Origin: Candidatus Effluviviaceae Genus I sp.
GTDB lineage: Bacteria > Joyebacterota > Joyebacteria > Joyebacterales > Joyebacteraceae
DNA: 64,000 nucleotides
Reading direction: 5' to 3'
NCBI GenBank assembly: GCA_016867725.1
Contig: VGIX01000001.1
Location: forward strand, 99,575 to 163,574
Notes under the pieces: model-generated
What the model was told of the DNA's origin: nothing
Seen by the model: the letters and a program-made list of their open reading frames with translations, nothing else
Database searches by the model: none
Program-made: the position numbers and the translations under genes
Part shown: positions 1 to 61,978 of the stretch, piece after piece
Layout of the letters: the number at the start of each line of letters is the position of its first letter
Position numbering within the stretch: the stretch's first letter is position 1

Positions 1-862
1 TCGCGCCCGCAGCCGCGCTCACCGATCTTCCGTAGTACTCGCGGTTCGTCGCCAGCCCGCCGGGGAACACGCCGGCGTCGAGGAACTCGCGGACGCCGCG
101 CAGGAGCGGCACGCTCGCGAGATCGATCTCGAGGGTCACGCGGCTCGCCCGCGCCATGGCGGACGCGTGCCCCGCGAGGCCGAAGCCCGTGACGTCGGTC
201 GCGGCCGTCGCTCCCGCCTCGACCATGGCCTCCGAGGCCGCGCGGTTCAGTCTCCTCATCACGGCCGTCGCCTCAGCGAGGCTCTCGGCGGAGAGCTTCC
301 CCTCCTTGAGCGCCGTCATGAGAATGCCCGTTCCGAGCGGCTTCGTGAGCGCGAGCGCCTGCCCGGGGCGCGCGCCGGCGTTCGTCACGACGCGCTTCGG
401 GTGGACCGTCCCCACCACGGCGAGCCCGTACTTGAGCTCGCGGTCGCTCACCGAGTGGCCGCCGACGATCGACACGCCGGCCTCGGCGGCCGTGTCCTCT
501 CCTCCAAGGAGGATCTCCGCCATCGCGTCCGGCGGAAGCTCCCCGTCGGGGAAGCACAGCACGTTGAGCGCCATCACGGGCCTTCCGCCCATCGCGTACA
601 CGTCGGAGAACGCGTTGGCCGCTGAGATCCTCCCGAAATCGCGCGCGTCGTCCACGACCGGCGTGAAGAAGTCCACTGTGAAGACGAGCGCGACCTCGTC
701 GTTCAGAAGGTAGACCCCGGCGTCGTCCACGGTGCCCTCGGAGACGAGCACGCGTGGATCCGCGATGGGCGGCAGCTTGGCGAGCACGGGAAGCAGGTCC
801 TCCGGACCCAGCTTCGACGCTCAGCCCGAGCAGCGCACCTTCTGTGTGAGCTTCCAGTCCAT
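1..862 (-). CDS. selD: Selenide, water dikinase SelD, 3' end truncated by the window edge. Predicted selenoprotein: in-frame TGA (Sec) at 821..823, codon 14.
   Basis: Minus-strand translation from ATG 860..862 (RBS GAGGGA 4 nt upstream) gives MDWKLTQKVRCSG-U-ASKLGPEDLL... then ...VDFFTPVVDDARDFGRISAANAFSDVYAMGGRPVMALNVL..., the AIR-synthase-like SelD fold. The TGA aligns with E. coli SelD Cys17 (GCGCK vs GUASK). The frame stays open for 287 codons to position 2. The ORF track missed it because of the TGA and the truncated end. Confidence 0.85.
785..823 (-). other. Sec (UGA) codon of selD at 821..823 plus a candidate bacterial SECIS stem-loop immediately downstream in the mRNA (lower coordinates).
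   Basis: mRNA: UGA GCGUCG AAGCUGGGUCC GGA GGACCUGCUU. The GGUCC/GGACC core extends with G-U wobbles to about 7-10 bp and starts about 7 nt after the UGA. Confidence 0.5.
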
Positions 863-928
863 CCGTCCCTCGTTCCGGGCGCCCGCCCTCGCGGGAACCG
901 GCGCCCGCGCCCCGGACCCGGCCGCCGC

Positions 929-2733
<1,805 letters not shown>

Positions 2734-2758
<25 letters not shown>

Positions 2759-23100: not shown

Positions 23101-23563
23101 AGAACCGGATCCGCCGCGCCGTGACCGTGGCCGACGTGTCCGCGTAGGACGCTCTGCCCGACAGGGTGACGACGTCCGAGTCCCGGTGGTAGCGGAGCGT
23201 CTCGGCCGCGACCGCCGCGCCGTCGTCCTCGCCGCTCACGCCGCCGTAGAGCAGGAACTCGCGCAGCGACTCACGGTAGACGCCGCGGCGGCCGACGAGC
23301 CGCGCGCCCTCCCGCTCGAGCACGACGCTGCCCTCGAAGAGCGCGATCCTGCCCCCGGGCCCCTCGCTCGCCTCGAACGCGTCGGAGCGGACCGTGAGAC
23401 CGTCCCCCGACGGCCACAGCGGGAGGGCGCGCGGCCCCGGCGCGGCCGCAGGCCGCGCCGCCGCGGTGTCCGCGGCGTCGGCCGCCGCCGGCACGCCCGG
23501 CTCCGCCTGCGTCAGAGCGACGACGGCGAGCGCGCGAAGAACGAAGGTGATGGCAAACGGCAT
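20174..23563 (-). CDS. lptD: LPS-assembly protein LptD-like (OstA N-terminal domain plus large outer-membrane beta-barrel)
   Basis: 1129 aa; signal peptide; OstA-like N-domain repeats (LTGERIFVAAPDG..., VFDPDSEVLTASGNP...); long beta-strand-rich C-terminal region. Confidence 0.75.
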   Translation of the reverse strand: MPFAITFVLRALAVVALTQAEPGVPAAADAADTAAARPAAAPGPRALPLWPSGDGLTVRSDAFEASEGPGGRIALFEGSVVLEREGARLVGRRGVYRESLREFLLYGGVSGEDDGAAVAAETLRYHRDSDVVTLSGRASYADTSATVTARRIRFFRAERVAVCVGDAVAVDADGSSELSAERIVYDFDRSEVRASGEPVITTTTDEGELDLTVRADVIELSRERSELRAFGAVAIVREDVKAGARAATLFLDDEVTFLEGDPFVSRERDQLTGERIFVAAPDGTLSRVRVTGRAAATYRIEPESPEDEPEWGRVAGDSLTMFFEGGDPVLTVVRGRAQSEHSIGSSGKRNTVAARELTVAFADGKIERAVFRGSAVGSYVFPPEGGRQVPPAPVPGEDASGVPPATPPAELETVDYRASEITYHVPDNRIVLADGATVEYQGTVLRAEEVVFDPDSEVLTASGNPDFTDAGERLIGSGLWYDLGAKTGSIDGGATTFEDGLCFGDRIERDADGSLRVRGGSYTTCSASEPHYHLTSRKMKIHLNDKVIARPVVLHIGRLPVLALPFYVFPIRKGRQSGFLIPQIEFGASEERGRFIRNFGYYWAPNDYWDAMAWADYYDQARWIAHLEARYALRYVLSGSVRTSFMQETLAGRRRWDLTLDHKQELGRNWTAGASGDFRSDASYATDANQSIQESLNRSLRSQLWVRGRWSGLSTGVTLDRREELDLGTVSELLPKIDVSGSQRPLLSVPEGTGGLRGLLGKVSYSWDARAVNDRSRTDGGATSRQAAGLGLSLRAPGKLLGWLTVSPHASVAQAWYDRDKLGNRFPSRLTYGAGVSASTAIYGTFFPRVGPLEGVRHIIEPSATYSWTPEFARYFDDGVDRFYSFGGFGSTPRAREAVSVSLVNKLQLKLKRAGGEVRKLDNFLRFSVSSAYDLRADDEPWADIVSRAEMRPGDAVSLSWDARHDPYTGRLGGSSITASVSLRGERSDAAAGDLGGPAGSGDPLDELRRAVASRSVADAPARRPWDASLAFRYSRGAAPGNETYWADATVALSPTAKWRVNWTVHYDLREREVASQEYVIHRDLHCWEAQFVRRYYAGEWQYYFRINIKALPDVQLETGRKTIYRRVN

Positions 23564-37366: not shown

Positions 37367-40300
37367 TCACGGTGATGACCTGTCCTTCGGTTCGATGCCT
37401 CCCATCGCCTCACGACCTTGGGCGCGGTGCTCGTCGCGGTCCCCCGTGAGTTCTTCGTAGACACCCTCCAGCTCACGGATCATCGCATCCTCCGTGAACG
37501 ACGGATCAAGGTCCTCGCGCGCTCTCCTTACCATCTCAGCACGAAGGGCGGTGTCCCGGGCGAGGAGCGCCAGCCTGTCGACCATGACGTCCACGGCCCC
37601 CTCGGGGACAAGATAGCCGTTCAGCCCGTCGTGGACGCACTCGTCGATCCCGGAGATGTCGTACGAGACAACGGGAACCCCGGTCGCGAGGGCCTGCGGG
37701 ATGACCCGCGGCAGTCCCTCCCACAGGGACGTCATGACAAGAACGTCCATGGCGCGCAGGAGATCCGGCACGTCGCCGCGAATCCCGGGAAGGAGCACAC
37801 GGTCCTTGATCCCGGCGTCCGCCACCGCCCTCTCGACCTCGGCGCGTAGCGGGCCGTCACCGACATAGAGGAAGCGCGCGTTCGCGTGGCGCTTGAGAAG
37901 GCCCTCCGCAACGCGCACGAAGTCGAGCGGGTTCTTCTGCGGCGAGAGCCTGCCGACCGAGCCGACCAGAAGCTCTCCGTCGCCCACGCCGAGACGCGCT
38001 CGCACCGAACGCCCGATCTCCCGGTCCGGCGAGAACGCGTCCATCGGGATCCCGCTCCGGACGAGGCGGTACGCCTCCGGCCGTCCGATGCCGTGCTCGA
38101 GCCCGATGCGGATCGTCCGGTTCGACACGGCCACGAGCGGCCTCGTCCATGGCTGCATGAAACGCTCCAGAAGGACATACAGCCGCCGCACGGCCGGTCG
38201 CATCCGATCGTGGAACCCCCATCCATGCACCGTGTGCACGATGTGCGGGACGCCGGCCAACCGCGCCGCCACGCGGCCCACGATGCCTGCCTTCGAGCTG
38301 TTCGTGTGGACGATGTCGAACGCCCCGCGCCTCATCTGGACGAGGAGCTCGGCCGTGACGCGCACGTCGTCCCAGGGACTCACCTCGCGCACGAGCCTCG
38401 GGAACACGCGCACGACGATGCCGCGAGACCTCGCGTCGGCGCGCAGTGATCCCTCGGGCCCTGTCTGGGGACCGATCCAGAGGTGCGACTCGAATCGCGT
38501 GGGGTCAACCCGCGCCACCGACGCGATGGTGTGCTCCTGGGCGCCCCCCACGATGAGTCGCGTGATGACGTACAGGACCCGCGTCTTGGCAGCCTGTCCC
38601 GCGGCCCGGAGGTGTGTCCCATACACGGTCGCCATGGCGGAGCCGTAGTCGGCGCGCCGCGTGAGCCAAGCGCGCCCGATGTCCACAAGCGCCAGGAAGC
38701 GCCTCGGATCGTCGCTCACCTCGAGGATCTTGCGCGCGATGTCCGCGGGCGCCGCGCTGTCGACGAAGCAGTCCTCGAGCGACGCAGGGAGCGCCTCGGC
38801 GGCCCCGCTCACCCGCCGCACGATCGGCACGCTCCCCCGCGCCAGTGCGTCAAGCACTGCGAGTCCGAGACCCTCGTGGTCCGACAGGAGAAGGACGATG
38901 TCCGCCCGGTCCAGCTCCGCGGCGACGTCATCGACCGCACCGGCAAAGCGGACCATGTGAGCGATGCCGAGGTCCCCGGCGAGCCGGCGGAGTCGCTCCC
39001 CCTCACGGCCCTCCCCGATCACGCTGCATGAGAAGGCGGCGGGCCTCACCCGTTCGAGCTCCGCGACGGCCTCGAGGAACAGGTCCACGCGCTTGACCGG
39101 ATGGAGCCGCGCGACCATCGCAAGCCGCACAGGCCTGCCTGGCACGAGCCTCTCGACCGGAGCGTCCGCGAACGGCACGGTCGGCGGGCTCTCGATGACC
39201 TCGGGGAGCGCTCCGCACCGCCCGAGGTAGGACTTCGCCTCCGCGACGGCGTCGGAGACGGCCAGGACTGCACAGGCGCGCCGAAGCACGAGCCACTCGA
39301 CGAGCCGCCCCCACCACGGGAAGGCCTCGTCCACCCCATGCTTCGTTGAGACGACGGGAGCCCGTCCGCGGAAGCCCAGGAACGCGGCGACGTCGCCCGG
39401 GAGGAGATGGGAGTGAACGAGATCGGCATCAAGAAGAGCGGCGACATCCGCCGCCACCATCCACTCCCCGGGCCTCCGCCATCCGGACATCCCGACGAGA
39501 TGGACCGGGACTCCGCGGCGCCTGAGACGCTCGCCGATCGGCCCGACGTGCGTGAGGCAGAGGATCTCGAACCTGTACGACTCGCGAGCCGGCCCCAGGA
39601 CGAGCGCCTCGATGAGCCTCTGCGAGCCGCCATACTCCATGTTCGGCGTGACCATGAGGACCGTGGGCCTGCGGTCATCGGGCGTCCGCGGCAGCTGGGC
39701 CGGAAGGTCGACGAGTCTCGACGGATGCCCCGGCTGTCCTTCCCACGGAGCGTCCCACCGGAAGCGTCCCAGCGCTCGCGAGAGCAGCCGGTAGATGGCC
39801 CCGCGCCGAGCGGAGGAGCGCCGTCGCCCCCTCGGCCCCAGGAAGGCGAGGGTCGCGTAGAGCCACGCGCGGAGCGCGGCGCGGGCGCGCCAGAGCGCCC
39901 TCACGCGGGACGCCGGCACACCCTCGCCGTCGCAGAAGTACCGGAAGTCGGAGAGAACGCGCGCCGTGAAGGCCTGCGCTTCGACCCCGGACGTTGACGC
40001 CCCTCCATCGTGCCTGAACGTCGCCGCCGGGACGACCGCCACGCGGAGGCCCTTCCGTCTGGCGCGCCGACACCACTCCACGTCCTCGCTGTAGAGGAAG
40101 AAGCCCTCATCCATCGGCCCGAGCGCGGTCAGGGTCTCGCGCCGCAGCGCCATGACGCTCCCGGACACGGCCTCGGTCTCAACCACACCGGCCGCCGTCG
40201 CGGCGCCGACAGGCGACCGGACGCCCCGACGCGGGGGCAGGAAGACGGCCTCTCGCAGGATGTCAATGGGCCGCGGAAGCGCGCGGAACGAGTTCGGATC

Positions 40301-40684
40301 CGGTCGTCCGGAGCGCGTGAGCGCCACGCCTCCGAAAAGCCCGAACCCGCGTTCGGCACGGACGGCGCGCGCAAGCGCTTCGAGAGAACCGGGCGTGGGC
40401 GCCACGTCAGCGTTCATGATGATGTACACGTCGCCACGCGCCGCTTCGAGGCCGCGGTTCACTCCGGCGGCGTAGCCGCGGTTCTCCTGCCCCCGGACGA
40501 GCCGAACGCCGGGGAGCGCCTCGGCAATGCGGTCGGGGCTCCCGTCGCCGGACGCGTTGTCCACGACGACGATCTCTGCGTCCAGGCCGTCCGCTTCGCG
40601 GACGATGGCCCGCAGCGTCTCAACGACCTTCCCACCGCCGTTGAAGTTGACGATGATGACGGAGACACCGACCGTCGCGCTCAT
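37367..40684 (-). CDS. Tri-domain glycosyltransferase (N-terminal GT2 domain plus two tandem GT4/group-1 domains), 1105 aa
   Basis: GT2: VSVIIVNFNGG...VVDNASGDGS...DVEWCRRA. Two GT-B group-1 domains with E-x7-E-like regions (LSDHEGLGLAVLDALARGSVPIV; TSLWEGLPRVIPQALATGVPVV). Confidence 0.75.
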   Translation of the reverse strand: MSATVGVSVIIVNFNGGGKVVETLRAIVREADGLDAEIVVVDNASGDGSPDRIAEALPGVRLVRGQENRGYAAGVNRGLEAARGDVYIIMNADVAPTPGSLEALARAVRAERGFGLFGGVALTRSGRPDPNSFRALPRPIDILREAVFLPPRRGVRSPVGAATAAGVVETEAVSGSVMALRRETLTALGPMDEGFFLYSEDVEWCRRARRKGLRVAVVPAATFRHDGGASTSGVEAQAFTARVLSDFRYFCDGEGVPASRVRALWRARAALRAWLYATLAFLGPRGRRRSSARRGAIYRLLSRALGRFRWDAPWEGQPGHPSRLVDLPAQLPRTPDDRRPTVLMVTPNMEYGGSQRLIEALVLGPARESYRFEILCLTHVGPIGERLRRRGVPVHLVGMSGWRRPGEWMVAADVAALLDADLVHSHLLPGDVAAFLGFRGRAPVVSTKHGVDEAFPWWGRLVEWLVLRRACAVLAVSDAVAEAKSYLGRCGALPEVIESPPTVPFADAPVERLVPGRPVRLAMVARLHPVKRVDLFLEAVAELERVRPAAFSCSVIGEGREGERLRRLAGDLGIAHMVRFAGAVDDVAAELDRADIVLLLSDHEGLGLAVLDALARGSVPIVRRVSGAAEALPASLEDCFVDSAAPADIARKILEVSDDPRRFLALVDIGRAWLTRRADYGSAMATVYGTHLRAAGQAAKTRVLYVITRLIVGGAQEHTIASVARVDPTRFESHLWIGPQTGPEGSLRADARSRGIVVRVFPRLVREVSPWDDVRVTAELLVQMRRGAFDIVHTNSSKAGIVGRVAARLAGVPHIVHTVHGWGFHDRMRPAVRRLYVLLERFMQPWTRPLVAVSNRTIRIGLEHGIGRPEAYRLVRSGIPMDAFSPDREIGRSVRARLGVGDGELLVGSVGRLSPQKNPLDFVRVAEGLLKRHANARFLYVGDGPLRAEVERAVADAGIKDRVLLPGIRGDVPDLLRAMDVLVMTSLWEGLPRVIPQALATGVPVVSYDISGIDECVHDGLNGYLVPEGAVDVMVDRLALLARDTALRAEMVRRAREDLDPSFTEDAMIRELEGVYEELTGDRDEHRAQGREAMGGIEPKDRSSP

Positions 40685-43613: not shown

Positions 43614-44819
43614 CTAGCGCCCGCCGCGCATGTGGGCCAGTCGGCGGGCCGCTCGGAAGAGCGCTGCCAGCTCGGGCGCAGCGCCCGCGCTTCGCGCCTT
43701 CCACTCGTCCTCCGAGCGGAGGATGACGTCGCAGGCGAACGCGATCCCGGCCCCTGCGATCGCGGCCAGGATCACGGTGAGCGCAACGATGAGACTTCTG
43801 CGGGGCCGCGACTTCCTGATCGGAGGCACCGCCCTGTCGACGACCTGGATCGTGCGGAGGTCCTTCGCCTCCTGGATGCGGGACTCCTCGTACTGCGCCG
43901 TCAGGTACTCGTGGACCTTCTCCTTGACCAGCACGTCTCTCGTGAGCCTCGCGTACTCGACGCCGAGCTTCGGGATCTGAGAGAGGGGAAGGAAGACGGC
44001 ACCAGATGCTTCGTCGCCGGACTGCGGTGTCGCACCAGCCAGGCTCCCGATCTTCGCGTCGAGCTCGCCGATCCGCGTCTCAAGCTCCACCATGCGAACG
44101 TGGGCCGGCGCCGCATAGTCGCCGAGGATGCCGCGCTCAACCTCGAGCCTCACGCGCTCGGCCTCCAGCGTTGCCGCGGCCTCCACGCTCACGCGAGTCT
44201 GCTCGGTCAGCTCGATCACGCCATGGCGTTCCTGAAACGACTGGAGCGCCGCAGTCGTTTCCCTGAGGAGCGCGTCATTCTCGTCGCGGCACCGGCTGAT
44301 GAACTCCGTCGTCAGGCGGGCCTGTTCGATGCTCGTCGTCCTGTTGTAGGCGTCCAGAAGATCCACGAGCGCGTTCGCCATCTCGGCCGCGCGGTCCTTG
44401 CTGCGATCCTCTACCCGGACCTCGATGAGGCCCTCCGGGGTGCTGTCCACCTTCACGTGCTGCGCAAGCCGGCGGATCGCGTGCTCCCTCGTCCGCGAGC
44501 GGTACACTCGCGCGAGGTCGAATCGGTCGACCAGCTGCTCGCGCAGTCGCCTGCTCTTCAGGATGCCGATCGTGACATCGAGCGACGGCGTGTCCGACGC
44601 CAGTCCCATTCCGGCGAGGTCAATGCCCAGGCGCGACGTGATCTGTACGAGGCTTGACCGTGCCTCGGACTCCTGCGGCGGGAGGATCGTCGAGCTCGCA
44701 GCATACCACGTGGGAAGGACGAGGCTCACCGCCACCGAGACGACCACCGCCGCCAGGACCAGTCGGTAGATGAGGGTCTTCCACTCGAGGAGCACATCGA
44801 GCATCGGCTTCGAGGTCAC
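43614..44819 (-). CDS. wzz: Polysaccharide co-polymerase / chain-length determinant (Wzz-like)
   Basis: N- and C-terminal TM helices flanking a coiled-coil periplasmic domain. Confidence 0.7.
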   Translation of the reverse strand: MTSKPMLDVLLEWKTLIYRLVLAAVVVSVAVSLVLPTWYAASSTILPPQESEARSSLVQITSRLGIDLAGMGLASDTPSLDVTIGILKSRRLREQLVDRFDLARVYRSRTREHAIRRLAQHVKVDSTPEGLIEVRVEDRSKDRAAEMANALVDLLDAYNRTTSIEQARLTTEFISRCRDENDALLRETTAALQSFQERHGVIELTEQTRVSVEAAATLEAERVRLEVERGILGDYAAPAHVRMVELETRIGELDAKIGSLAGATPQSGDEASGAVFLPLSQIPKLGVEYARLTRDVLVKEKVHEYLTAQYEESRIQEAKDLRTIQVVDRAVPPIRKSRPRRSLIVALTVILAAIAGAGIAFACDVILRSEDEWKARSAGAAPELAALFRAARRLAHMRGGR

Positions 44820-44862
44820 GCTTCCTGCCTTCCTCCACGCTCGGGCACGCGGCAGTGACCTG

Positions 44863-46464
44863 CTACTTCGTGGCCTGGTTGATGAGAAGGTACGCGGTCG
44901 CCAGCGAGCCGGCGAAGGACGCGATGTCCCTCGCGGTCCTCCACCAGTCGGACTCCGGCCGCTCGGGGACCCAGACCTCGTCGCCGGGCAGGATCGGGCC
45001 GGCTTCCCGCGCGGTCAGACGCTGCCCCGTGGCCGCCCGCACGACGCGAGTTCCGGTCCTCTTCGCCTGGGACGCGAACCCGCCCGCCCGTGCCACGTAG
45101 TACCGAGCGTCCTTCCCCGGCGCGAAGGCAACGTGCCCGGGGCGCGTGACGCGCCCGCTCACGGTCACGGTCGTGATCGCTCTCGGCACGAGGATCCGAT
45201 CGCCGTCCCTCAGGAGGGGGTCGTTGGACGCGCCGGCGACGAGCAGGCCCTCGAAGTCGGCCACGACCGTTCCCTCGAGCTCGGTCGACTTCGCCTTGAA
45301 GTAGGCGTACTCGGTCTCCGTCATGTCGCCGGCGGTCATCGTCTTGAGCCGCTCGAGCTCGGCGTCCATGTCCGCCGCCCCCTGACGGCGCACGAGTCTC
45401 GCGTTGCGCAGGGATGCCGCCGCCGTCGGCCCGCCGGCCCGGGCAAGAACGTCGGACAGGCGGTCGATCCCCTCGTTGATGCCATACACGCCGGGGTGGA
45501 CGAGTTCGCCCTCCGCGGAGACGAAACGAACGACCCGCCACTCGCTCCGCTGCTGCACGTAGACCTGATCGCCGTCCACGAGCGGGACCGCGGCGCCGTC
45601 CGAGCCTGTGAGGTCCACGACGCGGGCACCCGTCTTCACGTCGTCCCTGAACGTCCTGAGCTCGACGGTCTCAGTCACCGCGCCTCGGACGAAGCCTCCT
45701 GCCAGGGCGATGAGCGACCCGACGGTCTCTCCGTCGGTCAGCTCGTACCGCCCCGGTCGGGCAACGCCCCCATAGGCGTGAACGAACAGGGTGGCGAAGG
45801 GCACGAAGATGACATCGCCGTCCAGGACCGGCGGGTTTGACTTGATGTCACCGGTGTTCCTGTATCTCGCGAGGTCGGCTCGTGCGGTGGAACCGTCCCG
45901 ACGGGTGATGACGATGTTGCGGTCGCTCCCGCCGCTCAGCAGGCCGCCGGCCTTCCCAACAAGCTCGCTCGTGAGATCGAGGGCCGTTGCGGAGTACTCC
46001 CCCGGCGCCGCAACGGCCCCGAGGACGTTGACCCACATGGTCCTGAGCCCGACAAGCGACACGCTCACGTCCATGCCGTGGTAGAGCTTCCCCAGACGAG
46101 CCTCGACGTCGGCCTTGAGCGCCGCGAGCGTCCGTCCCGCCGCGGGAATGGGAGCGACCCCCGAGAGGATCAGATCTCCCTCCGGGGTGATCGTCTCGCG
46201 CCAACTCAGGACGGTTCGTCCCCAGAGCGCGATGGAGATACCGTCGCCCGGCCCGACGATGTAGGTGTCGGGATCGACCGGTCCGCGGAGCGCCGGCGGC
46301 TCCTTCAGCGGAGAGGCCGCCGAGGCTGCGGGCGAGATGCCTGCGGCGCTCGCGCCCTGCGCGGCAGCCAGGCCGAGAGCCGCGGCATCCCTGCTGCCGT
46401 CCACGCCGTGTCCTGCCGACGCGGCAAGCGCGATCGTGAGGACCGCGACTGCGATCACGTGCAT
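44863..46464 (-). CDS. wza: Polysaccharide export protein (Wza/OPX family with SLBB domains)
   Basis: Signal peptide; Poly_export motif (YIVGPGD); repeated SLBB-like beta domains. Confidence 0.7.
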   Translation of the reverse strand: MHVIAVAVLTIALAASAGHGVDGSRDAAALGLAAAQGASAAGISPAASAASPLKEPPALRGPVDPDTYIVGPGDGISIALWGRTVLSWRETITPEGDLILSGVAPIPAAGRTLAALKADVEARLGKLYHGMDVSVSLVGLRTMWVNVLGAVAAPGEYSATALDLTSELVGKAGGLLSGGSDRNIVITRRDGSTARADLARYRNTGDIKSNPPVLDGDVIFVPFATLFVHAYGGVARPGRYELTDGETVGSLIALAGGFVRGAVTETVELRTFRDDVKTGARVVDLTGSDGAAVPLVDGDQVYVQQRSEWRVVRFVSAEGELVHPGVYGINEGIDRLSDVLARAGGPTAAASLRNARLVRRQGAADMDAELERLKTMTAGDMTETEYAYFKAKSTELEGTVVADFEGLLVAGASNDPLLRDGDRILVPRAITTVTVSGRVTRPGHVAFAPGKDARYYVARAGGFASQAKRTGTRVVRAATGQRLTAREAGPILPGDEVWVPERPESDWWRTARDIASFAGSLATAYLLINQATK

Positions 46465-46594
46465 CTCGCGCAGGTTCAGGGTCTTGCCTCCCTCGCGCAC
46501 GGGCGCCCCTCGGGGCGACCGAGTATGGTGGACGCGTCTCGCCGCGGTCAAGGTCGTTCGCCGCGCGGATCCGCTTCGCCGCGGTCCGCCGTTC

Positions 46595-52314: not shown

Positions 52315-54642
52315 CTACCTGATGAGCACGAGCTTCGCCGTGGACTCACCGTCCGCGCAGGCGACCCTGGCGAAGTACACCCCGGTCGCCACCTCAAGCC
52401 CCCGCTCGTCGCGACCGTCCCACACGGACTCGTGGGCGCCGGCCGGCCTGATCTCGCCGTCGAGCAGCGTCCGCACGAGCCGCCCGGACACGTCGTACAC
52501 CGCCAGGCGGACCTGCGTCTCCATAGGCAGGACGTAACGGACGCCGGTCCCCGCGCTGAAGGGGTTCGGATGCCCCGAGAGCGCGATCCTGCTCCGCTCC
52601 GTCCCCTCCCCCGGCACGCCGGCGGACGGCGCGTCGCGCGAGATCTGCACGTCGTCCACGTACCAGCCGTCCCGCGTGATCCAGCTGTCGGAGGTCAGGG
52701 CGAAGCGCACCTTGAACTGGCTCGTGGCGTACGCGGTGACGTCGAACGAGACCTCCGTCCACGCCGACTGCGTTCCGCTGTACGAGGCCACCTGCGTCCA
52801 GCTCGACCCGTTGTTCGCGCTCACGGAGACGCGGCAGAGGTCGTAGCCCGACTCCGTGTCGTAGCGGTGCCAGAAGGACAGGGTCGCGCTCGACGCGCCG
52901 CCCAGGTCCACGGGGCTGCCGAGCGTCATGACGATGTTGGCGTTGTTGCCGTAGTTGCCGCTCGGGCTGTCGGTCATGCTGGACGACGGGCTGTGGAACT
53001 GGCCGGTCGTGAGCCCCCACGCGCCGGTCCACCGCGACAGGCCCGACTCGAGGTCGTCGTAGAAGACGGGACTCGGGAGCAGGAAGCTCTCCGTCACGGT
53101 CGTCCCGTAGACGACCTGGACACCCGCCCGCGTGACCGTGGAGTAGCCCGCCTTCGTCACCCGCATGTCGTGCGCGCCGACGGGGACGTGGTTGATCTCG
53201 TAGTAGCCCGTCACGGGATCCGAGACCGCGGAGTATCCCCCGATGTCCGTGACCGTCACGGACGCCGAGAGAGGGTTCATGGTCTGATCGAACACGTAGC
53301 CGGCGATCGTTCCGCGGGGCGGCGGCTCGAGCGCGAAGTTGACCACGACGAACGTGTCGAGGTTCGCGACGACGTTGTACACGGTCTGGCTCTGGTACTC
53401 CGGCGCGCTCGCCGTCACCGTGTAGGTGCCCTGCTGGACCATCCTGTGGTAGTCCCCGACCGCCGGGTCGGTATACACGTCCTTCCCGATCTGCGGGATG
53501 CTGATCGTGGCGTAGAGCGGCTCGCCCGTCCCGGCGTCGGTCACGATGCCCCTGATGCCCTTGCCCGATTTCCGCGCCTGGTACAGCATCGCCGGGATGT
53601 TCGCGTTCACGATGCCGTCGATGTTCGAGGCCGGCGGGTTCTTCGAGGTCGAGACCTCGATGGTCGTCGCGATCTCGCCGCGCTGGTCGTAGCACCAGTC
53701 CTGGCAGGTGCCCTTGGCGACGTACCAGTCGGCCCCGTTCGTCACCGGGAGCCCGCTCCGCGACCCGTACCCGTTCGACAGCGTGATGATCATCGGCTCG
53801 TCGGGGGTCGGGTCGTACGAGTAGTCCCAGAGGTAGTTGACGTACACGGCGCCCGAGTGGAACTGGAGCGACGTCACGGGGTTCATGCCGACGCAGAAGT
53901 CCCTCAGGGCCTGCGTCTCCGGGGCGGAGAACGCCGAGCCGGCGTTGCTCCCGTCCGGGCAGAGGTAGTTGCGGTTCAGGTCTGTGCCTTGCGCGTTGTA
54001 CCGCGAGCCGTTCGTGTGGCCGTCCGGGTTGATCATCGGGATGACCCAGAACTCCCGGTTGTTCACGAGCCAGGTCACCTGCGGGTTCGTCCCGTGGTTC
54101 TCGAGCAGGTACTTCGCCGCGTAGTAGCAGGTCTCGACGGAGATGGTCTCGTCGCCGTGATGGGCCCCCACCCAGACGATCTCCGGCTCGGCCTCCTCGA
54201 TCCCCGGGTTGTCCGTGATCTTGAGGGCCCAGAGCTCGCGGCCCTGCACCGATCGCCCGATCGAGATGAGCTCGGTGATGGACGGATAGGCCGCGTGCCA
54301 CGCGGCGAGGTCGGCCGTGATCGCGCTGTAGTTGTGGTACACGCCGCGGTACGGGGCGCTCTGCGCGAGGAACGCGTCGCGCATGTTCTCGACCACGACG
54401 CGGGGCCGGAAGCCGTTCGCCCACAGCGCCTCGATCTCACCGGGGACGGCGGCGATCTCGGCGACCCCGTCCCGCACGTTCATGATGTCCATCCCAAGCT
54501 CGTTGAGCCTGTGGATGTCCGCGCGCGAGTAGACGTCCACCTCGACGACCGCGGCGTCGTCCCTCGGATACGCCGCCGCGCCGGTCGCGAACACCAGCGC
54601 GGTCATGAGCACAGCAAGGCATGTCGCGCTCCGGAGCACCAT
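52315..54642 (-). CDS. M14-family zinc carboxypeptidase with T9SS C-terminal sorting domain
   Basis: Signal peptide; HxxE zinc motif (GAHHGDE), NPDG, NRNY; C-terminus ...VRLAVYDVSGRLVRTLLDG...HESVWDGRDERG...GVYFARV...TAKLVLIR matches the Por-secretion tail pattern. Confidence 0.8.
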   Translation of the reverse strand: MVLRSATCLAVLMTALVFATGAAAYPRDDAAVVEVDVYSRADIHRLNELGMDIMNVRDGVAEIAAVPGEIEALWANGFRPRVVVENMRDAFLAQSAPYRGVYHNYSAITADLAAWHAAYPSITELISIGRSVQGRELWALKITDNPGIEEAEPEIVWVGAHHGDETISVETCYYAAKYLLENHGTNPQVTWLVNNREFWVIPMINPDGHTNGSRYNAQGTDLNRNYLCPDGSNAGSAFSAPETQALRDFCVGMNPVTSLQFHSGAVYVNYLWDYSYDPTPDEPMIITLSNGYGSRSGLPVTNGADWYVAKGTCQDWCYDQRGEIATTIEVSTSKNPPASNIDGIVNANIPAMLYQARKSGKGIRGIVTDAGTGEPLYATISIPQIGKDVYTDPAVGDYHRMVQQGTYTVTASAPEYQSQTVYNVVANLDTFVVVNFALEPPPRGTIAGYVFDQTMNPLSASVTVTDIGGYSAVSDPVTGYYEINHVPVGAHDMRVTKAGYSTVTRAGVQVVYGTTVTESFLLPSPVFYDDLESGLSRWTGAWGLTTGQFHSPSSSMTDSPSGNYGNNANIVMTLGSPVDLGGASSATLSFWHRYDTESGYDLCRVSVSANNGSSWTQVASYSGTQSAWTEVSFDVTAYATSQFKVRFALTSDSWITRDGWYVDDVQISRDAPSAGVPGEGTERSRIALSGHPNPFSAGTGVRYVLPMETQVRLAVYDVSGRLVRTLLDGEIRPAGAHESVWDGRDERGLEVATGVYFARVACADGESTAKLVLIR

Positions 54643-54719
54643 GGACCTCCCTCAAGGACCGGCCCCGGACGGCAGCGCCCGGAGGCACCGTGCCCCCGGG
54701 CGCCCGCCGCCGCTCTCGT

Positions 54720-56726
54720 CTACTTCAGAAGCGCCATCTTCGTCGTGCGCGTCTCGCCGGCCCCCGAGAGCCGCGCGAAGTACACGCCGGACGCCAGCGC
54801 GCGACCGCCGTCGTCCGTCCCGTCCCACGCGATCGCGTGCGGCCCGGCGGCAAGATCACCGTCCACGAGCGTGCGCACCGCGCGGCCGTTCACGTTGTGC
54901 ACGGCCAGCGTCACGCGGCCCGCGTCGGCCGGCACGGTGAAGGCCAGCGTCGTCGTCGGGTTGAACGGGTTCGGGAAGTTCTGCCTGAGCGCGAGCGTCG
55001 TGACCGGCGGCGTCTCGGGCACGCCGGTCGGGATCGGCCCGAACCAGTGCAGGATGCGGTTCATGAGCGTCCGCTGGTTGTTCGGGTCGGCCGCGGCCGT
55101 CTTCACGCACTCGAACGGGAACGACGTGAACACGACGCGGTGGCCGCGGCCCGCGGCCTTCAGCGCCTTGATGCCGTTCGCGGCCGTGAAGATGCCGTCG
55201 GCGGACGCGTTGAGTTCAACGCTCTCGCTCCCCGACACCGAGAACGGCCCGCCGGTGATCCCGAGGGACATCCCGTCGGAGATCGGATCCCCAGCCACGC
55301 CCGTCATAATGAAGCCGCCCGTGTTGTTCGACCACGAGGCGATGTGCAGGTAGTCGCTGGTGAAGGTCGTCGCCCCGGTGCGGCTGCTCAGATACCCCAT
55401 GCTCGAGAGGAACAGGTTCCCGCCGCCGTCCAGGTACGCGGCCATCGCGGCTTCGTTTGCCGCGTTGATGGCCGACCCGTCGGTGTTGGCGGTCGTCCAG
55501 AAGACCGCCCAGAAGTCGTTCAGGAGGAGCTGCAGCGGTCTCCCCTTCGCGCTCGCGTCCCACACGAGCGGCGTGTACCCGTTGTCGAGGACGGCCTGCC
55601 TGAGGTGGCTCTCGTACGAGGCACCTCCGTCGTCGTCCACGATGAGGATGGACGGGAGGTCCACGAACACGCCGAACGACGCGCTGGCCGTCTTCAAAGC
55701 GTTGGTTCTACTCGTCGCCGTCAGCGTCGCGGTCCCGAGCCCCCGCACGGTGCCGATGAAGTCCGAGATCTCCACGGAGAACCGCTTCTCCTCGCCTGCC
55801 TCGAAGTGGTAGGTCTGCGCCGTGATCCAGCACACGTCGTCCGGATCACACGCGATCGCGAGCCACTCGTATGGGCCGACCTCAGGCGGGAAGACCGACG
55901 AGAGGCTGACCCTGATCGAGTCGGCCACGGTGCCGGTGTTCTTGATCTTCGCGAAGAACTTCCTGCTCTCGAGGTATCCCATCTCCGCGGCGTACGATTC
56001 GGGCGACATGCCCACGCCGTACGGCTCGCGCATGCACTGCGCGTTCACGATGAGCCGCGGCGACTCGACCTTCTCGATGAACGCCGCAATCCACACGTTC
56101 GCGTGGTTCCACGACGAACTCAGGACAAGGCTACGGTAGACGGTCACCGAGTCGCCGACGGCCGAGAGCGTCACGTTCTCCGTCGGCAGCATCTTGCGCA
56201 CCGTCCATGGGTAGTCCGTCCCGATGTTCTCGTACACGACGAACTGGGCGCGGAGCGGACCGAGAGTGTGAGGTTCGACGGCCTTGAACGTGGCCTCGAT
56301 CCACGTCGTCCCGGGGTCGTCCACCACGAGGCCCTTCGTCCTCATGACGATCGGCGTCGAAGCTGCCTTTCGGGCCGCGTAAATGGGTTCGTAGGTATCG
56401 CGCACGGTCGAACCCGCTCCGATGACCTCGACCACCGAGTCCCAGTCGACCTCGGGGATGCCGCCCACCCCGTAGTAGGTGGCGCGCGCCTGCGTCTCGG
56501 TCGTGGAGTAGGCGTCGTTCAGGTGGTAGTAGAGGACGACGAGGTTGTCCTTGCCGTAGTCGTTCTGCATTGCCTGGAGCGCCGCACGGGCGTTCGGGCA
56601 GTACCCTCACCACGTGGCCCCGAACAGCTCCGCGAGGACCGCCCGCTCCGCCGGCACGGCCGTCACCGCGCCGCCGAGCAGCAGGGCCGCTGCGAGTCCG
56701 ATCATCGCCGAACGCTTCATCGTCAT
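54720..56726 (-). CDS. Predicted selenoprotein: secreted thioredoxin-fold protein with a UxxC motif (Sec40 encoded by TGA 56607..56609), central domain of unknown function, and a T9SS C-terminal sorting domain
   Basis: ATG 56724..56726 with RBS GGAAGGGAGA. Signal peptide MTMKRSAMIGLAAALLLGGAVTA, then ...AVLAELFGATW-U-GYCPNARAALQAMQNDYGKDNLVVLYYH... read straight through the TGA. The downstream paralog aligns as ...VVLAELLTTRP-C-ANCPNAEAGLHTVLGEYGAGNLCVIAYH..., with a Cys at the TGA position. The C-terminus QNFPNPFNPTTTLAF...LAVHNVNGRAVRTLVDG...AIAWDGTDDGGRALASGVYFARL...TTKMALLK is a T9SS sorting domain. The ORF track called only 54720..56570. Confidence 0.8.
56560..56609 (-). other. In-frame UGA (Sec) codon 56607..56609 and GC-rich region downstream in the mRNA that may hold the SECIS
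   Basis: mRNA: UGA GGGUACUGCCC GAACGCC CGUGC GGCG CUCCAGGC; short GC stems within 40 nt of the UGA. Confidence 0.4.
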
Positions 56727-56813
56727 GGTCTCCCTTCCTGGCGATGCGTTGGCCTTCTCTCGGGGTTCCGGCGCCGTGTGCGTGGGGTGTCGGCATCCCC
56801 GCTCTCGTGCCTG

Positions 56814-57872
56814 TTATCGTCCTCCAAGTCGCGCAGCCTGCAGGGCTTCCTTGGTCAGGTCGTCCTGCACGAACGCGATCACACTCAGATTGGCCGTGTT
56901 CCACGACGGACTCACGGCGAACGACCGCGTCACGACCGCGGAGTCGCCCACGGACGCAACGCTCAGCGGCTCGTCGTCGAGGAGGTCGCGCGCGACGAAG
57001 TCGTACACGCTCGACGCCACGACGACGTGGTCCTCGATGACGACGACCCTGAGCACGGCCTCGGTCGTCGTGAGCGCCTCGCGGACCTTCACGGTCACCG
57101 TCACGCTGCCCGACGCCGCGCTCCCCGCCATCCGCATCGAGACCGGCGAGCCGAAGGTCCTCCGGTGGTCGATCTCCATGCGGTAGGCCGCGGCCGCGGT
57201 GGACGGCGACCCGGCGCCCTGGACGATGCGCGCGACGTCCCCGTCGAAGATCACCGCGGGCCATGTGTTCCACGAAGGCCCCATGTACCAGTCGATCCTC
57301 GCATTCGTCTCGGGCGTCCCGAGCGGGTCGGCCGGCGGGAGAAGATCGTGATACGCGATCACGCACAGGTTGCCCGCGCCGTACTCGCCGAGCACCGTGT
57401 GGAGGCCGGCCTCGGCGTTCGGGCAGTTGGCGCACGGGCGCGTCGTGAGAAGCTCCGCCAGCACGACGCGCGGGACGAGCCCGCCCGCCGGCCCGACCGC
57501 GAACGAGCACGCGGCCGGCGTCGGGTCAAGGTCGCCGTCGTTGTCCAGGGCGGCGACCTCGAACAGGTAGTCTCCCTCGGCGACCGCCGGCAGCACGAGC
57601 TCTGTGGCCGTCGTCTCCCCGGTCAGCGTGTCGTTGAGGGACCAGACGTACTTCACCACCGCCCCGTCGGGGTCGCTGCCGCTCCATGCGATGAGCGCGT
57701 CCGCGCCCGCCACGACCGCGCCAGGCGCCGGGCACGCCTCCATGACCGTCTCCGGGAGGAGGTTCACCTCGGCCGGGGAGTGGAACCAGTCGCAGCCGGC
57801 GGCAAGCGCCAGCGCCGCGAGCGCGGCCGCGCCCGCCCGACCCCACCACCGTCCGGTCCGCGTCCTCGCCAC
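56814..57872 (-). CDS. Lipoprotein with thioredoxin-fold CxxC domain; Cys-containing paralog of the selenoprotein N-terminal domain
   Basis: GTG 57870..57872 with RBS GGAGGGGG. Lipobox LALAAGC; ...RPCANCPNAEAG... The C-terminal region ...SPSWNTANLSVIAFVQDD... parallels ...SSSWNHANVWIAAFIEKV... in the selenoprotein. The Arg-rich N-terminal extension of the ORF-track call is rejected. Confidence 0.7.
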   Translation of the reverse strand: MARTRTGRWWGRAGAAALAALALAAGCDWFHSPAEVNLLPETVMEACPAPGAVVAGADALIAWSGSDPDGAVVKYVWSLNDTLTGETTATELVLPAVAEGDYLFEVAALDNDGDLDPTPAACSFAVGPAGGLVPRVVLAELLTTRPCANCPNAEAGLHTVLGEYGAGNLCVIAYHDLLPPADPLGTPETNARIDWYMGPSWNTWPAVIFDGDVARIVQGAGSPSTAAAAYRMEIDHRRTFGSPVSMRMAGSAASGSVTVTVKVREALTTTEAVLRVVVIEDHVVVASSVYDFVARDLLDDEPLSVASVGDSAVVTRSFAVSPSWNTANLSVIAFVQDDLTKEALQAARLGGR

Positions 57873-57880
57873 GCCCCCTC

Positions 57881-59356
57881 CTAGAAGTACGCGCTCAGCC
57901 GAACGCGCACGCCCTCGAACTCCGGCTCGAACCAGCAGACGCCGCCGGCGCACTTCTTCCCGCCACGCTGCGTGCCCGCGCCGAACAGCACCTCGACGTC
58001 GTCGGAGAGCCGCTTCTTGAGCTCCGCCGAGAACCACGCCTCGCGCTCCTCGAAGTCGGCCGTGCTCCGCTCGAACACCGCGGACACGGTGAGGTCGGCG
58101 CGCGCGTACCATGTGAGCGACCCCATGTAGTCGGTGTAGGCGGAGCCGGTGACGTCGTCGGTCGAGCCGATCTCGATGCCGAGCTCGGCCCTCTGCTCGG
58201 CCGGAAGCTCCACGTCGAACTCCGCCGCGCCGATCAGATGCTCCGTGAACTTCCCCAGCAGATACTCGCGGGACCACGACCCCGCCACGGCCCCGCTCAC
58301 CGACGCGGCGAGCGAATGCGAGAGTTCGCCGAAGATCTCCCAGTGCGACAGGTTCCCGGAGTGCGTCCTCGCCTCCGACGCGCCCGCCGTGAGCGAGAGC
58401 GCGTCGCCGACCGGCAGCGTGCCCTCGCCGAGGAACCCGCGCTCGTCATCGAGGCTGATCTCGTACGTGGCCCGGTTCATGAGGGTCCACGGGTGCTCGC
58501 GCACGCACGTCGGCGGGTTGATCAGGTGGTGCGAGAAGAGGTCATAGTCCTTGAACTCGCCGAAGAGCGTGAGCAGCCCGAGGTCGAACGTCCCCGAGAG
58601 GTACAGAGCACGGCCCTCGCCCGCCTCCGCGCCCGTGACCGGGTTCTCGACGTCGCGCCTGGCGTACTCGCCGGACAGGGCGACGCGGCCGAGCCAGAGG
58701 TCCACGGCGCCGTCGAGCACGACGTCCTCACGGCGGGCCTGCGCGGGCGGAAGAACGAGGTTCGCGTCGGCGTCCTCCCACGAGCGCTCCACCGCGCGAG
58801 CGGAGAGCCGCACCCAGTCCCAGGGCGCGGCGGCAGCCTCGAGCCCCCGCACCGTGTGCTCGCGGGTGCGGACCCTCGAGAGCGGCTCGCTCACGACGCC
58901 GGAAACCGCCGTGAACGCGAGCGGCCCCGTCCCATAGCCGATGAGGACGCCATCGAGCGCCGTGTCGTGCTCGAGGTCGGTCTGCTCGTAGCTCCGGAGA
59001 GCGAGCCCCTTCCCGAAGGTGCAGAAGAAGCTGCCCGCGCGGGCCGACAGCGACTCGTTGCGGAACTCGGCGTACCGGTGCCTGACCTCCGAGCGGGGGA
59101 TGTCCTTCTGCGCCGGACTGTAGCCGGGGTCCGAGAGCTGGTACGCGCGATACGTCGCGCCGAGGAGGAACCGTCCGACCTCGATGCCGAACTCAACGCG
59201 CCCGTCGAACACCGAGCCGTCCAGATCGACGTTGTGGAGGTACTCGCCGTCGACCGATCCCCTCACGGTGACGTCGCCCGCGTCGAACGACGACGCGGGG
59301 AGCGCCCAGGCGAGCGAGGCTCCGAGGGCTGCGAGGACGGTCGCGATCCGCTTCAC
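57881..59356 (-). CDS. Outer-membrane beta-barrel protein (porin-like, unknown family) with C-terminal CxxxxC
   Basis: Signal peptide MKRIATVLAALGASLAWA; alternating amphipathic beta-strand pattern; C-terminal ...GGKKCAGGVCWFEPEFEGVRVRLSAYF with a terminal aromatic residue typical of OMPs. Confidence 0.65.
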   Translation of the reverse strand: MKRIATVLAALGASLAWALPASSFDAGDVTVRGSVDGEYLHNVDLDGSVFDGRVEFGIEVGRFLLGATYRAYQLSDPGYSPAQKDIPRSEVRHRYAEFRNESLSARAGSFFCTFGKGLALRSYEQTDLEHDTALDGVLIGYGTGPLAFTAVSGVVSEPLSRVRTREHTVRGLEAAAAPWDWVRLSARAVERSWEDADANLVLPPAQARREDVVLDGAVDLWLGRVALSGEYARRDVENPVTGAEAGEGRALYLSGTFDLGLLTLFGEFKDYDLFSHHLINPPTCVREHPWTLMNRATYEISLDDERGFLGEGTLPVGDALSLTAGASEARTHSGNLSHWEIFGELSHSLAASVSGAVAGSWSREYLLGKFTEHLIGAAEFDVELPAEQRAELGIEIGSTDDVTGSAYTDYMGSLTWYARADLTVSAVFERSTADFEEREAWFSAELKKRLSDDVEVLFGAGTQRGGKKCAGGVCWFEPEFEGVRVRLSAYF

Positions 59357-59359
59357 GCG

Positions 59360-59896
59360 CTACTCCTGCTTGGTCCGCTCGGGGCAGCCCGCCGGGAGGA
59401 GCGAGCGCACCGCCGCGTCGAGCTCGGCGTGGTTCTGCGGCCGGTATCCGGCCGTCGCGTAGACGATCTCCCCCTTCGTGTTGATGAGGACTGTGCGGGG
59501 GACCGCCGACACGTGGAACTTCCGGGCCACGTCCTGCGACGTGTCGAGCACGACGTCGAACGTGTGCCCCTTGGAGGCGATGAGCGCCCCGACGCGCGAG
59601 GCCGACTTCGGGCCGTCGATGGACACCGCGACGACGCGCAGGCCGCAGTCGGCATACTTGTCGAGCACCTGCTGCAGGTCCGGGAAGGCCTTGATGCAGG
59701 GCTTGCACCAGGTCGCCCAGAAGTCGACGACGACCGGCCCGCCCTTCAGAAGCTCCGACAGCGTGAGGGACTTGCCCTCGACGTTCGGCAGCGTGAAGTC
59801 GGGCGCCTTGGTCGGCGTCGCGCCGAAGGCGCACGTCGCCGCCACGAGCAACACGGCGGCCCAGCCGCTTGTGCCTACACCTCGCCTCTTGGTCAT
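59360..59896 (-). CDS. TlpA/ResA-like thiol:disulfide oxidoreductase (thioredoxin fold, membrane-anchored)
   Basis: 178 aa; signal/anchor; FWATWCKPC active site; 3-nt gap to the downstream OMP gene. Confidence 0.85.
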   Translation of the reverse strand: MTKRRGVGTSGWAAVLLVAATCAFGATPTKAPDFTLPNVEGKSLTLSELLKGGPVVVDFWATWCKPCIKAFPDLQQVLDKYADCGLRVVAVSIDGPKSASRVGALIASKGHTFDVVLDTSQDVARKFHVSAVPRTVLINTKGEIVYATAGYRPQNHAELDAAVRSLLPAGCPERTKQE

Positions 59897-61372: not shown

Positions 61373-61978
61373 CTACACCTCCTGCGGCGCGCCCTCGATG
61401 AGCTTCACGACCTCCTCACGGAGCGCATTCCCGATGGCCGGGGTGAACCCCACGTGCTTCGCCGCGATCCTCCCGTCCGGGCCGATCACGAACGTCATGG
61501 GGATCGAGCTGACCTTGTAGGACGCCGCGACGGGCTTGTCTCCGACGAGCACAGGATACGAGACCTTGTTGGCCGCGGCGAAGGGCCTCAGCACGTCGGC
61601 TCCACCGTCGTCGAGTCCGATGCCGACGACCACGAGCCCCCGGTCCCTGAACTCCTCGTACAGCCCGACGAGGAACGGGATCTCCTGGCGACAGGGCGGA
61701 CACCACGTCGCCCACAGGTCCAGCACCACGACCTTGCCCTGGAAGTCGGACAGCGAGACATCCCGCCCGTCGACGTCCTTGAGCGTGAAGGGCGGCGGCG
61801 TCATCCCGACGTCAACGCCGACGGCCGCCGAGCCCGGAACAGCGGACCCGCCGCTCGCCTCGCCTTGCGTTGCTGCATCCGCGCCGGCCGGGGGCGTCTC
61901 CTGCCTTGAGCATCCCGCCGCGGCGAGGACCGCCACCGTGAGCATCCCGACCGCAAGCCACCTCAAGAACTGCGCCAT
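61373..61978 (-). CDS. TlpA-family thiol:disulfide interchange lipoprotein
   Basis: Lipobox LAAAGC; LWATWCPPC active site; 201 aa. Confidence 0.85.
   Translation of the reverse strand: MAQFLRWLAVGMLTVAVLAAAGCSRQETPPAGADAATQGEASGGSAVPGSAAVGVDVGMTPPPFTLKDVDGRDVSLSDFQGKVVVLDLWATWCPPCRQEIPFLVGLYEEFRDRGLVVVGIGLDDGGADVLRPFAAANKVSYPVLVGDKPVAASYKVSSIPMTFVIGPDGRIAAKHVGFTPAIGNALREEVVKLIEGAPQEV

Follow-up and report, generated by a model that had tools for sequence, protein, structure and literature searches.

A probable UxxC thioredoxin-fold selenoprotein with a type IX secretion C-terminal domain, encoded beside its CxxC paralog

Described relatives and the reading frame

Hemin-binding protein 35 (HBP35) of Porphyromonas gingivalis is a cargo of the T9SS (type IX secretion system) that is anchored on the cell surface by A-LPS (anionic lipopolysaccharide), reduces insulin better than Escherichia coli thioredoxin in a manner dependent on C48 and C51, and complements an E. 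coli dsbA mutant (PMC2907840, PMC3120885). The family GOS_C was predicted in 2008 on the basis of Global Ocean Sampling sequences; it had 74 selenocysteine (Sec) and 312 Cys members, a thioredoxin (Trx)-like fold and no assigned function (PMC2398784). In a 2026 review, NF045500 is listed as "Hypothetical protein GOS_C", motif UxxC (PMC13188914, Table 1). Omp28 (PF11551/NF033782) and DUF1223 (PF06764; PDB 2AXO) are thioredoxin-like envelope proteins, either lipoproteins or periplasmic, without a T9SS tail. Bacterial selenoproteins that are exported have already been described, among them SaoB and SaoC, which are extracytoplasmic (10.1101/2022.07.06.499078). Here, we report on a gene found in a 64,000-nt stretch (the window) of contig VGIX01000001.1 of Candidatus Effluviviaceae Genus I sp. 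(assembly GCA_016867725.1). The initial annotation read its product as a UxxC thioredoxin-fold selenoprotein with a T9SS C-terminal domain, encoded beside a CxxC paralog, and this core reading is strongly supported.

Translation of 56726..54720 revealed a single internal stop, a TGA at codon 40 flanked by MTMKRSAMIGLAAALLLGGAVTAVPAERAVLAELFGATW and GYCPNARAALQAMQNDYG (locally ...VLAELFGATW, the TGA, then GYCPNARAALQAMQNDYG...). The open reading frame (ORF) list split the gene at this codon into a 39-aa ORF (56607..56726) and a 616-aa ORF (54720..56570). Both the in-frame TGA and the splitting had been claimed in the initial annotation, as had the placement of the TGA on the first Cys of a CxxC motif, and all three were borne out. 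When the N-terminal 240 aa, with C substituted for the stop, were compared by BLASTP with the adjacent lipoprotein (57872..56814), the alignment (31% identity over 221 aa, E=2e-22) spanned the TGA and met the PCANCP motif of the lipoprotein. The motif around U40 is U-G-Y-C, with U40 falling on the first Cys of the WCGYCP thioredoxin motif. Full-length Cys orthologs of 662–679 aa aligned end to end with the 668-codon reading, one of them (P0003) at 68% identity. We conclude that 56726..54720 is a genuine selenoprotein gene that was mis-called as two ORFs and, on the sequence comparisons given below, that codon 40 very likely encodes Sec.

HBP35 (PDB 5Y1A) is both the closest characterised relative and the structurally closest solved protein. 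The window protein shares with it a WCGYCP-type thioredoxin-fold domain followed by an Ig-like domain, and U40 aligned with Cys48 of HBP35; by homology, U40 would take the first, nucleophilic place in the redox motif. HBP35 has Cys at this position, is 344 aa long and lacks the second Ig-like and GATase1-like domains, whereas the window protein has predicted Sec and both of these domains. The two proteins are only ~17–18% identical, and HBP35 is from Bacteroidota while the relatives of the window protein are labelled Candidatus Eisenbacteria.

The top NCBIfam match was NF045500, "Omp28-related selenoprotein", at 44.7 bits against a cutoff of 200 (E=1.1e-11, residues 22–134 against profile positions 33–156 of 377). 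This model matched 18 of 23 family members, the best E-value being 7e-16 and still far under the cutoff. On these scores, NF045500/GOS_C is the nearest of the catalogued selenoprotein families, but the window family is only distantly related to it and falls below its membership threshold. As in GOS_C, the UxxC motif lies in a Trx-like fold, which for the window protein comes from an AlphaFold 2 (AF2) model. The window protein is set apart by its hidden Markov model score and by the published descriptions, as the GOS_C papers give no secretion signal, T9SS domain or function. It scored 34 bits against NF033782, which has a threshold of 150, and gave no match to Pfam Omp28 (PF11551) at E ≤ 0.1.

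The in-frame TGA and the hairpin that follows it

Searching the database with the full-length protein gave ~58 orthologs, of which those with names are labelled Candidatus Eisenbacteria or simply "bacterium". Twenty-seven ortholog entries of 662–679 aa span the whole query and read ...FG(A/S/G)(T/S)WCGYCP..., and ~30 others of 600–631 aa begin just past the motif (MQ.., LQQLQ.., VTLQ.. and similar). The DNA was inspected for seven of these N-terminally truncated calls (P0001, which is the window protein, P0002, P0007, P0023, P0053, P0054 and P0058), and all seven had an in-frame TGA at the exact codon found in the window. Another 18 loci came from scanning metagenomes with the N-terminal domain. 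A second protein search using the N-terminal 210 aa returned one protein and was uninformative, while a contig profile search with the full-length alignment caught the generic T9SS tail motif QNxPNPFNP in 80 unrelated T9SS proteins.

Overall, 18 distinct homologous sequences from other metagenomes and metagenome-assembled genomes (MAGs), read as DNA, had the TGA at the same codon as in the window. Identity to the window protein among these ranged from 75% (L086, N-terminal 235 residues) to ~44%, with a further sequence, L109, at 28%. The most divergent carriers read W(TGA)GACPSAR (L107), W(TGA)GSCPSAR (L108) and W(TGA)GYCPDARCGL (L109). The flanks of the TGA were kept, namely the signal peptide and VLAE(L/M)FG upstream and GYCPNAR downstream. 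Ten distinct Cys-form or paralog sequences examined as DNA had TGC or TGT at the Sec position. The search for homologs across the TGA therefore found both states, TGA in the 18 sequences and Cys in the 27 full-length orthologs. As the same codon is kept in 18 distinct sequences and is TGC or TGT in the Cys forms, a chance TGA is excluded.

The locus could also be taken as gene callers annotate it, with the TGA as a true stop that leaves either a split or decaying gene, or a 39-aa leader followed by a 616-aa protein starting at ATG 56570. P0001 and ~30 other database entries do start past the TGA, and in the window an ATG is found 36 nt downstream of it. However, an independent start at MQNDYG was not conserved, as its Met is replaced by Leu, Val or Ala in many orthologs. 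The 39 codons upstream of the TGA are conserved as protein and align with both the Cys-form orthologs and HBP35, and a 616-aa product would miss the signal peptide, the first beta-strand and the active site of the thioredoxin fold. A pseudogene would not be expected to keep its TGA across 18 diverged sequences, and that reading was rejected for this reason; the synonymous sites after the TGA are also frozen, as described below. A true stop at codon 40 is extremely improbable.

In the bacterial selenocysteine insertion sequence (SECIS) model, a stem-loop lies directly 3' of the UGA with a G or GU in the apical loop ~16–37 nt from the UGA. An alignment of 17 sequences, comprising all of the Sec forms except L109 and numbered from the U of the UGA, gave the consensus UGA GGN UAY UGY CCN A(A/G)C GCC CGU GNG GCG (U/C)U(G/C). 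In the upper helix, positions 16–21 pair with 27–32 as (A)ACGCC/GGCGU(U), giving the core ACGCC[CGUGN]GGCGU with an apical loop of C22-G23-U24-G25-N26, and positions 9–12 pair with 33–36 (CUGC/GCAG) in the lower stem. In the window, the lower stem is CUG/CAG, the upper stem is (G)A-CGCC/GGCG-U(C) and the loop is CGUGC, with G23-U24 at 56587..56586. The spacing of G23/U24 appears to be that of the E. coli fdhF SECIS. As in a canonical fdhF-type SECIS, the hairpin lies inside the ORF directly 3' of the UGA; its upper stem starts 13 nt after the UGA. It differs in having a 5-nt CGUGN loop where the fdhF type has GGUC, and no equivalent of the bulged U17 was evident.

Standard pairs made up 89% of cells in the 17-sequence alignment and 96% in the upper helix, and pairing fell to 24–57% when the 3' partner was slid by 1–3 nt. 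Compensatory changes were found at A17-U31, which is G17-C31 in L107 and L108, and in the lower stem at C9-G36, which is U-A in two sequences. The four-fold sites of GCC, CGU, GNG and GCG were invariant in the sequences sharing them (12/12 to 17/17), whereas other four-fold sites in the alignment held three or four different bases. CGU is rare, making up only 4.8% of Arg codons in the window genes. In the tandem Cys copy of L084 (position 5242), PNARAAL is encoded by AAC GCC CGG GCC GCG CUC and the hairpin cannot form. When the 17 Sec forms were used to build a covariance model, they scored 57.7–80.2 bits with it and the Cys forms 45.6 bits or less, a separation that is partly true by construction. 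In the 64-kb window the model found one site, the next best scoring 10.5 bits. On the comparative evidence, the hairpin is under selection at the RNA level, and the SECIS-like structure called for in the initial annotation was found, with synonymous sites frozen in the Sec forms and no such hairpin in the Cys forms.

Two further observations were made on the hairpin region. The Cys forms nearest to the L094 and L106 Sec forms (P0028, P0033 and P0039) read PNAC(E/A)AL where the Sec forms read PNARAAL, which fits a CGU-to-UGU change after the SECIS constraint was lost. L109 (position 2435, equivalent to P0089), found in another MAG and 28% identical, has its TGA at the CxxC position followed by a hairpin, GCCCG[GUG]CGGGC, with the GU shifted by one nt. 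The TGA in L109 indicates that the use of Sec in the superfamily reaches beyond the Eisenbacteria orthologs.

Genes for Sec synthesis were found close by. The window begins within selD, encoding selenophosphate synthetase, which is itself a selenoprotein gene with an in-frame TGA at 823..821 (MDWKLTQKVRCSG-U-ASKLGPEDL, motif CSG-U-ASK). A hairpin follows the selD UGA, and gene callers start selD past the TGA, as in the 305-aa call in L104. Contigs L104 and L105 are 99.96% identical to bases 1..2758 of the window and extend past its edge. On both, ARAGORN detected a gene for tRNA-Sec, with anticodon TCA, 56 nt downstream of selD; it scored 76.6 bits against Rfam RF01852 (gathering score 47). 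The selD and selC genes form a small Sec locus adjoining glmS. Of the Sec machinery that the initial annotation had asked for, selD is therefore in the window and tRNA-Sec on near-identical contigs.

Incorporation of Sec in this uncultured organism is predicted from sequence, and several observations speak against the reading. Neither selA nor selB was seen in the window or ~16 kb of extra flank (~80 kb of the genome covered). Covariation in the hairpin is modest and four core upper-stem pairs never vary. Folding energy was no better than that of shuffled sequences at 71% GC (z = +1.2 and -0.07), and an Rfam search of 54000..58500 at E ≤ 10 found no SECIS family, only two chance matches to long non-coding RNA and microRNA models. 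As the thermodynamic z-scores are not significant, the support for a SECIS is comparative.

The UGA may alternatively be read through as an amino acid other than Sec, either by a reassigned code (UGA as Trp or Gly) or by near-cognate suppression. Some uncultured lineages do reassign UGA. In the window, however, TGA terminates 14 of the 34 confident genes, with TAG ending the other 20. As TGA is an ordinary stop in these genes, recoding at codon 40 is site-specific, and a reassigned genetic code was rejected on the same ground. The only residue that aligns with codon 40 is Cys, within a redox motif of the CxxC type. The codon is also followed by a conserved hairpin of the expected SECIS geometry, and selD and tRNA-Sec are encoded close by. 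Read-through without Sec is scarcely credible, and Sec insertion is the preferred explanation. The recoding mechanism, with a SECIS-directed UGA in a UxxC thioredoxin fold, is entirely canonical.

Domain architecture and predicted export

The N-terminus (MTMKRSAMIGLAAALLLGGAVTAVPA/ER) looks by inspection like a type I signal peptide with visible n-, h- and c-regions, and this region is conserved in all full-length orthologs. At the N-terminus, Pfam gave only a weak Thioredoxin match. AlphaFold models were built on the 68%-identical Cys ortholog P0003, not on the window sequence, and reached a pLDDT (predicted local distance difference test) of 85 for the N-terminal 235 aa and 86 for the full length, with low pLDDT in the N-terminal helix. 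The full-length model comprises, in order, the signal helix, a thioredoxin fold, two Ig-like domains, an alpha/beta domain and a C-terminal beta-sandwich at residues 584–668 (Table 1). For the alpha/beta domain, Pfam and PDB sequence searches found nothing significant, with DUF2194 and DUF4159 at E ~0.02–0.08. It resembles GATase1/ThuA and is probably non-catalytic, as it has no invariant Cys or His.

The T9SS C-terminal sorting domain claimed in the initial annotation was recovered by TIGR04183 Por_Secre_tail (NCBIfam), which scored 27.7 bits against a cutoff of 23 and also matched 22 of 23 family members, and by Pfam FlgD_ig, which scored 50.1 bits at the C-terminus (gathering score 27). On sequence grounds, the window protein is likely to be a T9SS cargo. 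Other observations count against this. Pfam Por_Secre_tail (PF18962) scored 18.6 bits, under its gathering score of 27, no T9SS machinery gene (PorU/PorV/SprA/GldKLMN) was found in the window or its flanks, and a surface-exposed thioredoxin would need an electron donor.

The protein could be a genuine selenoprotein whose FlgD-Ig-like domain is only structural and which works within the periplasm or at the outer membrane's inner face; one such role would be to catalyse the folding of exported proteins, as DsbA/DsbC do. The low Pfam score and the absence of a T9SS component from the window favour such a location, as does the ability of HBP35 to complement an E. coli dsbA mutant, which indicates that it can work in the periplasm (PMC2907840). 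P0090 and P0091, of 584 aa from Thermoanaerobaculales (Acidobacteriota), have Trx, Ig, Ig and GATase1-like domains and the motif ATWCGYCP with a different C-terminus, and so share the three N-terminal domains without a T9SS sorting domain. However, the window protein and 22 of 23 relatives score above the curated TIGR04183 cutoff, and the same tail is carried by the M14 peptidase encoded next to it and by many other Eisenbacteria proteins named by NCBI as T9SS type A sorting proteins. In addition, HBP35, the structurally closest solved protein, is a proven T9SS cargo (PMC3120885). A location short of the cell surface is unlikely, and T9SS export remains the preferred reading.

The C-terminal ~430 residues (Ig-like, GATase1/ThuA-like and T9SS tail) also recur on Eisenbacteria metallophosphatase and M6 metalloprotease proteins (P0060–P0071). 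This suggests that they may be a common display scaffold for T9SS cargo in the Eisenbacteria phylum.

Taken together, we infer Sec insertion, T9SS export, redox activity and a substrate as follows. UGA-40 would be recoded to Sec when tRNA-Sec and SelB recognise the in-ORF SECIS hairpin directly after the UGA, giving one 668-residue protein with a U-G-Y-C redox centre in its thioredoxin-fold domain. The precursor would carry a Sec-type (general secretory) signal peptide, the HBP35-like thioredoxin and Ig domains, the second Ig-like domain, the GATase1/ThuA-like scaffold and a type A T9SS C-terminal domain. It would be exported to the periplasm and then, most likely, transferred by the T9SS to the cell surface or the medium, where, in the manner of its Cys relative HBP35, it may serve as a thiol/selenol-disulfide oxidoreductase. 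We hold this explanation, a 668-residue UxxC selenoprotein that is most likely exported by the T9SS, with high confidence.

Gene neighbourhood and evolution of the family

The features of the locus are collected in Table 1. The cluster runs in the order TlpA/ResA-like protein, DUF6029 protein, CxxC lipoprotein, Sec protein and M14 carboxypeptidase. The order DUF6029, paralog, Sec protein recurs in L081, L082/83, L084/85 and L106. The TlpA-like gene precedes this trio in L081–L085, where the syntenic loci gave AhpC-TSA/Redoxin matches at its position, and the M14 peptidase directly follows the Sec protein in L081, L082/83 and L106. All syntenic loci checked (L081–L085, L106) had a DUF6029 gene upstream of the paralog. 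The DUF6029 protein carries a signal peptide, ends in ...SAYF, as is typical of outer-membrane beta-barrels, and gave no NCBIfam match. As a speculation, the conserved cluster of TlpA-like reductase, DUF6029 barrel, CxxC lipoprotein, Sec protein and T9SS M14 peptidase could be an envelope redox relay supplying or using the Sec protein.

Table 1. Coordinates of features in the window and on contigs extending it
Feature	Position	Strand	Basis or remarks
Selenoprotein gene	54720..56726	minus	Complete; 668 codons including Sec40; stop TAG 54722..54720; translation
TGA, predicted Sec codon (U40) at the start of the UGYC redox motif	56607..56609	minus	Conserved codon; Cys alignment
SECIS-like stem-loop	56574..56601	minus	nt +9 to +36 from U of UGA; folds, comparative pairing
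Predicted signal peptide, residues 1–26	56649..56726	minus	MTMKR, hydrophobic core, AVPA/ER; by inspection
HBP35/Omp28/DUF1223-like module: thioredoxin fold (residues ~28–122), Ig-like beta-sandwich (~126–232)	56031..56645	minus	
Second Ig-like beta-sandwich (residues ~238–355)	55662..56015	minus	AF2 full-length model of P0003, pLDDT 86
GATase1/ThuA-like alpha/beta domain (residues ~358–562)	55041..55655	minus	
Predicted T9SS type A C-terminal sorting domain (residues 584–668)	54723..54977	minus	TIGR04183, FlgD_ig
CxxC paralog: lipoprotein (lipobox LAAGC), PKD-like domain, Omp28/DUF1223-like thioredoxin module (PCANCP)	56814..57872	minus	BLASTP, Pfam
DUF6029 protein, probably an outer-membrane beta-barrel (ends ...SAYF)	57881..59356	minus	Pfam PF19494 86.4 bits; synteny
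TlpA/ResA-like thiol:disulfide oxidoreductase (WCKPC), first cluster gene	59360..59896	minus	NCBIfam ResA subfamily E=1.6e-27
M14 carboxypeptidase with T9SS sorting domain, downstream neighbour	52315..54642	minus	Pfam in syntenic loci; TIGR04183 24.6 bits
selD (selenophosphate synthetase)	2..862	minus	TIGR00476 355.8 bits, cutoff 125; 3' end cut by window edge
tRNA-Sec	L104 12981..13078; L105 7321..7418		~223–320 nt beyond window position 1
LptD	20174..23563	minus	
GT2/GT4 fusion	37367..40684	minus	
Wza-like region	43614..46551	minus	

The initial annotation had taken the Cys lipoprotein to be the result of a recent duplication with Sec/Cys exchange, and this part did not hold. The two proteins are only 31% identical, the lipoprotein has its own PKD domain and lipobox, and it occupies the same position in distant Sec- and Cys-form loci. 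It was syntenic in L081, L082, L084, L097 and L101, and the motif of the upstream paralog, FTTxxC(V/T)xCP, was seen in the Cys-form loci L097, L098 and L101 as well. In Pfam, the lipoprotein matched Omp28 (PF11551) at 33.5 bits, under the gathering score of 34.9, and also DUF1223. The low identity together with the conserved synteny indicates an old, separately maintained paralog.

A second AhpC-TSA/Redoxin-type lipoprotein (61373..61978, minus strand) is found ~1.5 kb from the TlpA-like gene and may be part of this envelope redox set. The window also has envelope genes for a 1129-aa LptD, for a 1105-aa protein in which one GT2 module is fused with two GT4 glycosyltransferase modules, and for a Wza-like polysaccharide export protein (Poly_export and SLBB, 44863..46551) adjoined by a 402-aa ORF (43614..44819). 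None of LptD, the glycosyltransferase fusion or the Wza-like gene is a T9SS component.

Exchange of Sec and Cys was found between orthologs, namely the window protein and P0003, and P0020 and P0008/9. It was also found in tandem copies, with Sec and Cys in L084 (positions 2971 and 5242) and Sec and Sec in L092 (1779 and 3898) and L093 (3112 and 5234). A neighbour-joining tree covering 55 orthologs showed Sec-type entries interspersed with Cys-type ones, with ~10 changes by Fitch parsimony and a root reconstructed as Sec; this count is rough, as only some of the "truncated" entries were verified as Sec from the DNA. Sec looks ancestral in this clade and appears to have been repeatedly replaced by Cys, a direction suggested by the near-identical SECIS across clades.

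Full-text literature searches found no paper joining selenoprotein with Omp28 or selenocysteine with Eisenbacteria, and those for selenoprotein with "type IX secretion" and selenocysteine with T9SS returned only single mentions of each term. A Sec-containing T9SS cargo thus appears to be undescribed in the literature searched. The find is nevertheless less novel than the initial annotation had it, given the distant UxxC family GOS_C, catalogued since 2008, and the characterised Cys T9SS cargo HBP35. As exported selenoproteins are already known and the recoding is canonical, the advance is incremental, and the new features are the predicted T9SS export and the extra domains. Tentatively, this may be the first recognised T9SS-cargo selenoprotein, a surface or released UxxC oxidoreductase of Candidatus Eisenbacteria that is fed by a dedicated envelope redox cluster and in which Sec is ancestral and has been repeatedly lost to Cys.

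About half of the gene calls for this family in the databases are wrong, being ~50 residues short and missing the signal peptide and active site, and corrected calls matter for the annotation of Eisenbacteria and related MAGs of the FCB (Fibrobacteres, Chlorobi and Bacteroidetes) group. As the G23/U24 spacing of the SECIS seems to be fdhF-like, read-through can be tested in E. coli, although the organism itself is uncultured. The result ties together the UxxC Trx-fold selenoproteins (GOS_C/NF045500), the T9SS cargo HBP35 and a conserved envelope thiol-redox cluster, and suggests that some orphan UxxC selenoproteins may be cell-surface oxidoreductases. If this is true, the long-unexplained GOS_C-type selenoproteins would gain a functional anchor in HBP35, and bacteria would be spending selenium on extracellular redox chemistry.

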